The translations under genes and the position numbers were made by a program. This document shows positions 39,997 through 42,334 of a stretch of DNA of 64,000 nucleotides, piece after piece. This DNA comes from Spirochaetia bacterium. Lineage in GTDB: Bacteria > Spirochaetota > Spirochaetia > DSM-2461. Under the pieces are notes generated by a model. That model worked only from the letters and a program-made list of their open reading frames with translations, was not told the origin of the DNA and did no database searches. Numbering within the stretch: the first letter of the stretch is position 1; each line of letters starts with the position of its first letter. The DNA is taken from positions 3,072,001 through 3,136,000 of the forward strand of contig OY764216.1 in the NCBI GenBank assembly GCA_963668315.1. The letters are read 5' to 3'.

Positions 39997-40632
39997 ATGA
40001 AAGATTATGAAACATATCTGTTTGATATTGACGGAACGCTTCTAGATACGATGGATCTGATATATACCACATACAGGGAAACCCTGCGCCGTTATTCCGG
40101 CCCGTCTCTGACCCGTGAGGAAATCCTGTCGAAGGTCGGAATTCCCCTTCCCGTGCAGATGGGGCTTTTCTTCACAGAACAGGAGGAGAGGCTTCCCGAG
40201 ATTATCCAATATTACCGAGATTATCAGGAAGAGATATACAGGGATGTTCTGAAGACCTTTCCCCGGGTTCCCGAGGTCCTGAAAGAACTGAAGGACAGGG
40301 GAAAAACTCTGGGTGTCGTTACTTCGAGAACTCTGGGATCGTTGACAAAATATTTACGCCACTGTGAGCTGGAAGAGTATTTCCACATTCTCATTACACC
40401 GGAAAAAACATCCCGCCACAAACCCCATCCCGAACCGGTGCTCTGCGCCCTGGAAGAACTGGGATGCGACGGGAAGAAGACTCTCTTTACAGGGGATGCT
40501 TCGGTTGATATGGAAAGCGGCCATGGCGCCGGAACGGATACGGCTTTTGCTCTTTGGGGACCGAATGATCCGGAAAGTCTGAACGTCAAACCGACATGGC
40601 TGCTCTCTTCCATGGATGACCTGTTGGTATAA
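39997..40632 (+). CDS. HAD-IA hydrolase (PpaX-like)
   Basis: FDIDGTLLDT, VVTS, HKPHPEP, GDASVD. Confidence 0.88.
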   Translation: MKDYETYLFDIDGTLLDTMDLIYTTYRETLRRYSGPSLTREEILSKVGIPLPVQMGLFFTEQEERLPEIIQYYRDYQEEIYRDVLKTFPRVPEVLKELKDRGKTLGVVTSRTLGSLTKYLRHCELEEYFHILITPEKTSRHKPHPEPVLCALEELGCDGKKTLFTGDASVDMESGHGAGTDTAFALWGPNDPESLNVKPTWLLSSMDDLLV

Positions 40633-40711
40633 AAAAAATATAAATAAAGAATCCCTTGAAGGGGAGCCTCCTTTTGATGAAAATTATATCAGATAAGAAA
40701 AGGAGGCGTAT

Positions 40712-40747
40712 ATGTTCGATTTTTGCATCAGGGGTGTCCTGTTTTAA
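40712..40747 (+). CDS. Candidate leader peptide MFDFCIRGVLF
   Basis: Strong SD AAAGGAGG 5 nt upstream; coding part is the 5' arm of a long hairpin ahead of the RNHCP gene. Confidence 0.55.
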   Translation: MFDFCIRGVLF

Positions 40748-40832
40748 GGATATCCGCCGGTTGACCCGGCTTCCTGATAGGGCAGGACATCCTCATCCGC
40801 TGTTTAAAGAAACACTAATTCAGAGGAAAAAA

Positions 40833-41249
40833 ATGTCCAGAAAAACGATTATCAGAAATAATCCCGGGGAGAGCTTTGTCTGCGGTTCATGCGGCAGGAC
40901 GGTGCTGCCCCTTACATGGGGAGGGAGTCACCGCAATCACTGTCCCCATTGTCTTTCCAGTCTACATGTCGATATTCTTACGGGAGACCGGCGTTCAGGC
41001 TGCCGCGGTCTCATGATACCCATCGGAATATGGATCAAGTCCGACAGGGAAGGAGTTCTTATTCATCGCTGTGAAAAGTGCGGCATGATCAGGACAAACC
41101 GCATCGCTGCCGACGATAATGAGGTCATGCTCATCACGCTTGCCATGGAACCGCTGACGCGGCTGCCCTTTCCGTCCGGAAAGGCGATGGACAAACTTAG
41201 ACAATTAAGCGCAACAGGGGAGGTGCCGAATGGGTCTCTGGGGAAATAG
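40833..41249 (+). CDS. RNHCP domain protein (start revised to 40833)
   Basis: FVCGSC, HRNHCPHC, CRGLM, HRCEKCG, NRIAADDN; SD AGAGGA. Confidence 0.88.
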   Translation: MSRKTIIRNNPGESFVCGSCGRTVLPLTWGGSHRNHCPHCLSSLHVDILTGDRRSGCRGLMIPIGIWIKSDREGVLIHRCEKCGMIRTNRIAADDNEVMLITLAMEPLTRLPFPSGKAMDKLRQLSATGEVPNGSLGK

Positions 41250-42276
41250 TGAAGAAATAGCCCGGGACGGGATATCCCGCGCCCGCATTGTCGGGGTGAA
41301 CAGAGAAATATATCATCTGGGATGGGAAGACTCCGATGTCCCCATCAGGGGGGAACTGACCGGAAAACTGAGGTTTCAAAGCCGGCAGGGAGAGCTCCCC
41401 GTGGTCGGGGACTGGGTGTGCTGCGTCAGGAATGAGCAGTTCTGTCTTATCGAGGAAGTCCTGCCCCGCCGGACCGTTATCAGCCGCAAAAGCGCCGGCG
41501 TGGTCACGGAGGAGCAGCCGCTGGCAGCCAATATCGATCTGGTGGCCATCGTTCAGGGATTGGACGGGGGGAGGAATTTTTCTCTCCGCGGTATAGAGAG
41601 ATACCTGACTCTGGCCTGGAATTCCGGCGCCGTCCCCCTGATTATTCTCAATAAGGCCGACTTGAACGACGATGCCGATTCCTATATGAGGGAAGCGGAA
41701 TTTGCCGCTCCCGGAGCTGATGTGATAATTACGAGCGCCGAAAAGGGTACGGGTATCGATGCACTCCGAGAGCGGTTCAGAGATAAAACCGCCGTGCTGG
41801 TCGGCCCATCCGGAGTGGGGAAATCGGCCCTGTCCAACGCCCTGCTGGAAAGGGAGGCGCAGCAGACCGGGGCCAACAGGGAAGGGGATAAGAAGGGGAA
41901 GCATACGACGACCTCATCAAGGCTCTTCCTTCTGCCCGAAGGGGGCTGGCTTATCGATTCTCCAGGATTGAAAGAGATTCAGCTCTGGGGAGATGAACAG
42001 GGGGTGGAAGACACTTTCAGTGAGATCGATGAGCTGGCCGGCCGGTGCCGCTTCAGCGACTGCCGCCATGAAGGAGAGCCGGGGTGCGCCGTAATGGAGG
42101 CCTTGCGGGAGGGAGAACTTGATCAGAACCGCTATGCCAGTTATCTGGAACTGCGCAGGGAAATGGACTGGCTGGACTCCCGGCGCAGCGAGAAGGGCCG
42201 CCTGGATGAACGGAAAAAGGGCAAAACGCTGAGTAAAACCATCAAAAATATGGAAAAAGGGAAGCCGGTGTATTAG
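41230..42276 (+). CDS. rsgA: Ribosome small subunit-dependent GTPase A (RsgA family)
   Basis: Circularly permuted motifs NKAD, GPSGVGKS, HTTT, DSPG; Zn finger CRFSDCRHEGEPGC. Confidence 0.92.
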   Translation: MGLWGNSEEIARDGISRARIVGVNREIYHLGWEDSDVPIRGELTGKLRFQSRQGELPVVGDWVCCVRNEQFCLIEEVLPRRTVISRKSAGVVTEEQPLAANIDLVAIVQGLDGGRNFSLRGIERYLTLAWNSGAVPLIILNKADLNDDADSYMREAEFAAPGADVIITSAEKGTGIDALRERFRDKTAVLVGPSGVGKSALSNALLEREAQQTGANREGDKKGKHTTTSSRLFLLPEGGWLIDSPGLKEIQLWGDEQGVEDTFSEIDELAGRCRFSDCRHEGEPGCAVMEALREGELDQNRYASYLELRREMDWLDSRRSEKGRLDERKKGKTLSKTIKNMEKGKPVY

Positions 42277-42286
42277 GAAGTAAGGC

Positions 42287-42334
42287 TTTACCGGGAAAAA
42301 CGGCATTGCCATTTTCCCGGTAAATGTCTATATT
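42287..42334 (+). promoter_or_regulatory. 13-bp inverted repeat overlapping clpP promoter
   Basis: TTTACCGGGAAAA...TTTTCCCGGTAAA; TTGCCA (42306), 17 bp, TATATT (42329). Confidence 0.55.

Follow-up and report, generated by a model that had tools for sequence, protein, structure and literature searches.

Gene content and organization of the locus

The analysed DNA (the window) is a stretch of 64,000 nt from the 5.6 Mb genome of a Spirochaetia bacterium (GCA_963668315.1, contig OY764216.1, positions 3,072,001–3,136,000 of the forward strand). The homologous loci nearest to that of the window came from spirochaetes. As shown in Table 1, a gene encoding an RNHCP-domain protein and a gene encoding a second RsgA, a GTPase of ribosome assembly, follow a leader with a short upstream open reading frame (uORF), in the order HAD hydrolase–leader–RNHCP–rsgA–clpP. 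RNHCP and rsgA overlap by 20 bp, as had been noted originally. A junction in which the stop of RNHCP overlaps the start of rsgA was present at 46 of 59 spirochaete loci and suggests translational coupling. A sigma-70 match of good quality is located downstream of rsgA (42306–42334, TTGCCA-17-TATATT); clpP is probably outside the operon because it has this likely promoter of its own.

Table 1. Features of the leader and of the RNHCP–rsgA genes (window positions).
Feature	Position	Strand	Remarks
Candidate sigma-70 promoter (TTGAAG, 17 nt, GAAAAT)	40656..40684	+	Likely, from sequence match; 27 nt 5' of uORF start
GCCTCCTTTT, complement of leader Shine-Dalgarno (SD)	40666..40675	+	Probably incidental: promoter spacer and tail of terminator-like hairpin after HAD gene
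uORF SD AAAGGAGG	40699..40706	+	Duplex -11.8 kcal/mol; median -11.1 over 59 loci
uORF, 11 codons, MFDFCIRGVLF	40712..40747	+	Translation predicted
Arm A (uORF nt +20 to +35)	40731..40746	+	Predicted to pair with B2 (ON) or B1 (OFF)
Segment B1	40747..40755	+	Predicted partner TCCT 40772–40775 (ON fold) or arm A as local hairpin (OFF fold)
Inner hairpin GCCGG/CCGGC	40756..40770	+	Present in both predicted folds
Arm B2	40778..40794	+	Carries GGACAT (complement of RNHCP start) and CCTC (anti-SD)
Segment C, RNHCP SD (GAGGA) and start (ATGTCC)	40823..40838	+	Proposed regulated initiation site
RNHCP-domain protein, 138 aa	40833..41249	+	PF12647, E 1e-34, 118 bits against a cut-off of 24
Accessory RsgA GTPase (second copy), 348 aa	41230..42276	+	PF03193 (E 2e-48) and TIGR00157, above cut-off

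The SD, the uORF and its peptide were located exactly where the original prediction had placed them. The helix it had described between 40731–40746 and 40778–40793 consists of 16 bp, 5 of which are G-U, and the AGGA/TCCT and GCCGG/CCGGC inner stems were both present. The alternative pairing it had claimed between the 3' arm and the RNHCP SD also involves features at the right places. Two further features of the leader had been missed: GGACAT at 40785–40790 pairs with the RNHCP start ATGTCC at 40833–40838, and a local hairpin (40732–40740/40747–40755) competes for the 5' arm, A. The fold of the window leader alone was mildly unusual (z -2.0; 8 of 200 shuffles were equally stable). No further copy of the leader was found in the host genome, where only the RNHCP–rsgA locus scored. 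Rfam 15 at gathering score gave no family in the window and none in the leaders of 16 homologous loci; below threshold, six weak matches fell within 40600–40900.

A rival promoter candidate at 40624–40652 scored equal to the one at 40656–40684, and neither was among the calls of a promoter scan of the window. The homologs carried a TTG-type hexamer pair with a spacing of 16–18 nt at a median of 31 nt upstream of the uORF ATG, and three relatives of the same genus had TTGAC/T-17-GA[AG]AAT 29–32 nt ahead of it. A terminator-like site is located at 40652–40665, downstream of the HAD gene. The upstream anti-SD GCCTCCTTTT does exist where it had been reported, but its proposed place as a conserved part of the switch was given up, as it was absent from the spacers of the three same-genus relatives and probably lies within the promoter spacer. 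It was predicted to pair with the leader SD (p 0.96) only if transcribed. A local role is possible, because 40666–40675 would be part of any transcript made from the 40624–40652 candidate or continuing from the HAD gene.

The RNHCP protein and the accessory RsgA

Among 57 RNHCP sequences, seven Cys and three His were invariant and one further Cys was nearly so; these conserved residues are likely zinc ligands, judging from their pattern. The structure model of the protein had a pLDDT of 81.5. No clear structural relative emerged: no PDB sequence match was found below E 0.25 and no Foldseek match at E 0.001, and the best VIA Z was 3.1. An N-terminal extension from 40656 or 40677 was considered and rejected; the frame is open, yet the homologs begin at MSR. 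The host genome carries one RNHCP copy. Matches to RNHCP were found in 18 of 38 genomes of the host's order and in 72 of 301 genomes of the class, and a literature search found no biological paper on RNHCP.

The RsgA encoded downstream has the circularly permuted G4-G1-G2-G3 order intact (NKAD, GPSGVGKS, HTTT and DSPG). Its C-terminal zinc site, CxxxxCxHxxxxxC, aligns with that of solved RsgA, with C273, C278, H280 and C286 invariant in 55 sequences. A second, housekeeping rsgA, for which the original prediction had proposed to look, is present after murI elsewhere in the genome, and the two proteins are 35% identical. The view of the window's gene as an accessory copy held up: it is not the standard copy of the lineage and falls outside the housekeeping rows. 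In a quick tree of 52 proteins, a branch with SH-aLRT 99 separated 48 accessory RsgAs, which came from several phyla, from two housekeeping rows and two fusion proteins.

Two RsgA matches were found in 30 of the 38 genomes of the order. They were present in 17 of its 18 RNHCP genomes, and in the exception a contig end truncates the second copy. RNHCP loci were found in many phyla (508 in all); of the best 80, rsgA was directly downstream in 52, an RsgA–RNHCP fusion was encoded in 12, and the flank of the remaining 16 contained no rsgA match. RsgA–RNHCP fusions were recorded at 13 loci; it is suggested that fusion arose more than once, because two of these (L082 and L109) use an RsgA from outside the accessory clade.

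We also compared 15 rsgA loci from genomes without RNHCP, of which one housekeeping copy and one locus with only 62 nt upstream were set aside. Nine of the remaining 13 had a leader of this type (one of them degenerate) and four did not. By this distribution, the leader is taken to belong to rsgA. Three loci (L162, L163 and L171) keep the leader and a short apparent remnant of the RNHCP start before rsgA after decay of RNHCP.

Neighbouring proteins were scanned (n = 49; 27 of 27 downstream and 22 of 43 upstream). Ten were GNATs, including one that has an APH domain, two were glyoxalase-like and six were TetR proteins. An O6-methylguanine methyltransferase gene is located ahead of one of the RNHCP loci (L065:2114-2740). 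The gene downstream of SCO6149 in Streptomyces coelicolor is annotated as Ada-like, a parallel that may be due to chance.

Conservation of the leader in spirochaetes

To the 88 spirochaete loci collected, the following filters were applied: 9 duplicates, 1 near-duplicate, 9 loci with rsgA first, 9 without rsgA and 1 fusion were removed. The 59 RNHCP-then-rsgA loci that remained, including the window, were thus selected by gene order, the leader being ignored. The uORF with the best SD was chosen at each locus; two choices were then revised manually, and the four uORFs without an SD were assigned manually.

This comparison, which the original prediction had called for, found a conserved uORF and a covarying helix in the spirochaete RNHCP–rsgA loci. 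A strict uORF (GGAGG, 4–8 nt, ATG, 5–25 codons) was found at 48 of 59 loci when searched to 480 nt. In the host genome, 741 long ORFs with free DNA upstream were searched over the shorter span of 200 nt, and 5 of them had such a uORF. The mean energy of helix A:B was -20.4 kcal/mol, compared with -13.2 kcal/mol for shuffled A, and the native arm was better at 58 of 59 loci; the shuffled control was scanned more coarsely and the search window for A opened at +17. Covariation was assessed on an alignment of 32 leaders, drawn from the 35 in which B is no more than 60 nt from the start. Both sides had changed in 7 of 12 A:B pairs, and 0 of 500 shuffles scored as high. These shuffle, permutation and covariation counts are overstated because the loci are kin. 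The local hairpin A:B1 beat shuffles at 45 of 59 loci, and the primary sequence of arms A and B is well conserved.

A CCTGTT-type helix core was present at 45 loci, and at 38 of them it was located at +27 or +28, counted from the start of the uORF. The core was read in one frame at 21 of these 38 loci and in a second frame at 17, and uORF length ranged from 6 to 18 codons over the 59 loci. Because the position of the core is fixed while frames and lengths differ, we infer selection on the spacing but not on the peptide encoded over the helix. Judged from the alignment, the conserved quantity is a distance, such that the helix would start just past a ribosome on the start codon. The original reading of the leader as a leader-peptide switch thus stood in its conserved uORF with alternative helices, but not in the importance it gave to the peptide sequence. 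No conserved pairing partner was found for uORF codons 1–6; their pairing with the loop was dropped as a candidate, since it was better than shuffles in 16 of 56 cases.

Four related loci (L128, L132, L133 and L137) have lost the SD and have a -10 box 8–9 nt upstream of the ATG, with A in its usual place. The missing SD and the short distance of the -10 box suggest leaderless translation of the uORF. At these loci the uORF has 6–7 codons and is located about 160–171 nt before RNHCP. The insert at the position of the inner hairpin differed among homologs, from 4 to about 170 nt, and the distance from B to the start reached 185 nt. The shortest leaders (L102 and L007) retain the uORF, A, B and C alone. 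Five loci have a pyrimidine-then-purine motif (TCC[TC]CAC AGAA[AG]ATCTC type) in the A:B loop, upstream of B, for which no partner was assigned. Together, these results give good support to the leader as a real conserved element.

Predicted pairing of arm B with the RNHCP start

When B plus 16 nt was paired with the initiation region of its own locus, the energy was -14.9, compared with -11.5 for permuted partners, and 0 of 2000 permutations were as low. The own partner of B had a median rank of 8th among the 59. Relative to coding windows of the same locus, B:C was within the best 5% at 25 of 59 loci with B fixed and at 30 of 59 with C fixed. RNHCP codon 2 was TCC at 49 of 59 loci, compared with 94 of 476 Ser codons in the bodies of RNHCP genes. 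Lineage-specific B:C matches were found at three loci (L096, L098 and L146). No covariation was detected in the fixed 6-bp GGACAT:ATGTCC register (0 of 6 pairs), several loci are without a good B:C helix, and B:C was weak (-3.9 to -11.6) at six RNHCP-less loci. Pairing of B with the RNHCP start is supported by the energy tests, as a predicted interaction.

Predicted direction of the switch

To model translation of the uORF, the ribosome was represented as an unpaired mask in the folding. Of the 59 leaders, 47 gave A:B a probability higher than 0.5 when naked, 45 with a ribosome at codon 1, 40 at codon 3 and 5 at codon 5; at codon 8 the mask allows no value but zero. The mean cost of opening the RNHCP start was 8.8 kcal/mol with the ribosome at codon 1 and 9.9 kcal/mol with the ribosome at codon 7 or at the stop. 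From codon 1 to the stop, this cost rose by more than 1 kcal/mol at 26 of 55 loci and fell at 4. The mean predicted gain in occlusion is thus about 1 kcal/mol, and many loci were unchanged. As for the window, the cost rose from 5.3 to about 7.3–7.6, and the explicit ON and OFF folds had energies of -34.7 and -32.6. The probability of A:B2 in the window ranged from 0.08 to 0.91 over naked to codon-3 states, varying with boundaries and footprint. Equilibrium folds of the naked RNA favour A:B at 47 of 59 loci, and the window is near balance.

The original prediction had held that the direction of the switch could not be read from sequence. On the contrary, the homolog comparison, through folding and opening costs, favours the ON state when the uORF is not elongated. 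According to the accessible text of PMC12121999, a ribosome stalled at the start codon has its 3' edge at +16 to +18, which falls just short of arm A. We propose, with a probability of about 0.6, that the leader is a translational switch, one that senses ribosome traffic on a short uORF and not a specific peptide, and that it is ON if ribosomes fail to pass beyond about codon 4. Ribosomes elongating or terminating on the uORF would melt A:B2; B2 could then capture the RNHCP start, giving the OFF state, which the local hairpin A:B1 would preserve between ribosomes. With rare initiation, or with arrest at the start or first codons, A:B2 would persist and the RNHCP start would be freer (ON). The output, an accessory 30S GTPase and a zinc-binding partner, may help restore working small subunits under drug stress or other translation stress.

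The strongest alternative, which we consider rather unlikely, is an attenuator of the erm, vmlR or toiL type. Here the naked RNA would be trapped in the OFF state, since A:B1 and B2:C would form first during transcription, and ON would need a ribosome stalled at the start or at a particular codon. The conservation of A:B1, which would indeed form first, fits this explanation, as does the window, where the ON and OFF folds differ by about 2 kcal/mol. Drug-specific arrest could be favoured by residues that recur in the uORF: codon 2 encodes Ser/Thr at 30 of 59 loci, codon 3 Ala at 23 and codon 5 Val at 31. Induction of toiL also requires uORF translation, according to the accessible text of PMC12121999. 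However, a ribosome stalled on codons 1–6 would have no conserved partner to displace, A:B is favoured in most naked leaders, and the frame and length of the peptide differ among loci.

It is improbable that the helices act chiefly on transcription or RNA stability, for example through Rho-dependent termination after blocked RNHCP translation or through an exposed pyrimidine-rich loop. Such an effect would suit the large inserts in A:B and the long distances from B to the start, and in toiL translational repression is coupled to Rho termination (PMC12121999, accessible text). On the other hand, no terminator-like site or intrinsic terminator was found on the + strand of the window between uORF and RNHCP (40747–40833), and the shortest leaders are reduced to uORF, A, B and C.

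Autoregulation, with the leader as a binding site for RNHCP or the second RsgA and the uORF secondary, seems more doubtful still. In its favour are the conserved Cys/His and basic residues of RNHCP and the well-conserved primary sequence of A and B; nevertheless, the leader outlasts loss of RNHCP at 9 of 13 loci, and the ribosome is implicated both by the leaderless variants and by the constant distance to the uORF start. Least probable of all is a static structure without switching, in which the uORF merely recruits ribosomes or shields the 5' end: the small predicted energy effect and the lack of covariation in the fixed B:C register agree with it, but B fits its own C better than the C of other loci, RNHCP codon 2 is biased toward TCC, and arm A would be unable to stay paired during translation because it lies inside a strongly initiated uORF.

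Leaders in other lineages

A leader of unrelated sequence, with a uORF of 17–18 codons and an anti-SD hairpin, was found at 16 Bacillota loci, which include many near-copies from Acetobacterium. This uORF ends near a RE[AV]C motif, the anti-SD is held in a GGGAGG/CCTCC hairpin, and most of these leaders are located about 100–110 nt before RNHCP. A third type was observed at 11 loci of Verrucomicrobia/Kiritimatiellota, with a uORF of 19–20 codons that begins with MRA and, at five of the loci, a weak SD. The gene pair is kept at the Vibrio, Bacteroidota and Marinimicrobia loci, where an SD-led uORF was looked for and none was seen. At six Vibrio and Bacteroidota loci a TetR gene is located upstream of RNHCP–rsgA, and one copy is on a Vibrio plasmid. 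Horizontal transfer is hinted at because the Vibrio and Bacteroidota RsgAs group with the window's copy in the quick tree.

Comparison with known systems

The inducible ribosome-protection genes known so far (erm, ABC-F and HflXr) act mostly on the large subunit. Leader-peptide attenuators such as ermC, cat and cmlA use alternative pairing of four segments to hide or free a downstream initiation site. As in the erm/cat type, the SD-led uORF of the leader described here overlaps a helix for which an anti-SD helix is the alternative. It differs in having no conserved stalling peptide, since frame, residues and length over the helix differ.

As far as the accessible text of PMC10274678 goes, efficient translation of the whiB7 uORF turns the gene off, and expression rises when the uORF is poorly translated or has lost its start codon. 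The predicted behaviour resembles that of whiB7/wblC of actinobacteria, in which uORF translation keeps the gene off and the output protects translation; for the present leader, a rise in expression upon loss of uORF translation is predicted from folding. In the same source, whiB7 uses a terminator/antiterminator and a long amino-acid-sensing uORF, whereas here the downstream SD and start are targeted, the uORF has 6–18 codons and no terminator lies in between. By analogy, the logic is probably that of whiB7, acting on translation initiation instead of termination.

Like toiL, vmlR, cplR and vga(A), as described in the accessible part of PMC12121999, the leader has a short uORF on which ribosomes would be arrested at or near the start, and a downstream SD that could be masked (as in toiL). 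Induction of toiL depends on uORF translation, and it is the stalled ribosome that unmasks the SD (same source, same part). Here, in contrast, the helix begins beyond the footprint of a ribosome on the start codon, and the genes are predicted to come on when the uORF is no longer translated. The hflX uORFC-6-1 motif (PMC8632094, accessible text) likewise has a uORF and a covarying structure ahead of a ribosome-associated GTPase; it has a conserved RLR macrolide-arrest peptide and a GTPase acting on the 50S subunit, whereas no RLR-type motif was present here and the GTPase belongs to the 30S RsgA family.

SCO6149 is an RsgA paralog of S. coelicolor that is bound by WblC and, under tetracycline, was 68-fold higher in the wild type than in the wblC mutant (PMC7157823, accessible text). 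Like SCO6149, the window's gene encodes a second RsgA beside the housekeeping copy, which we tie to translation-targeting antibiotics by inference. According to the same text, SCO6149 is under transcription-factor control with no function shown; it is likened here as an RsgA paralog that may or may not belong to the same clade. With this WblC-activated paralog as the best outside support (PMC7157823, in the part accessible), a role of the window's genes in ribosome repair or antibiotic tolerance, as originally proposed, may be suggested by analogy.

The accessible text of PMC11109978 and PMC7278804 contains nothing on the RNHCP–rsgA leader. The literature search found no description of it; subscription journals, bioRxiv supplements and the supplements of PMC8632094 and PMC11109978, where it may be listed, lay outside its reach. 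A uORF switch before an accessory RsgA, usually with RNHCP, is thus apparently unpublished.

More tentatively, the leader could be a peptide-independent gauge of the supply of competent ribosomes in a feedback loop. Scarce small subunits would call up a dedicated RsgA clade and its zinc-binding cofactor RNHCP, which would repair or recycle damaged or drug-bound 30S subunits. Such a system would possibly be the equivalent of HflXr for the small subunit, distributed over several phyla and evolved anew in Bacillota with an unrelated leader. The prediction of the leader model that separates the mechanisms is that a uORF start mutant would be constitutively on. If the model is true, a widespread inducible second RsgA would point to a small-subunit stress response, and the switch would be an undescribed response to translation stress. 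It would also account for the two RsgA genes in many genomes and give RNHCP a testable role.
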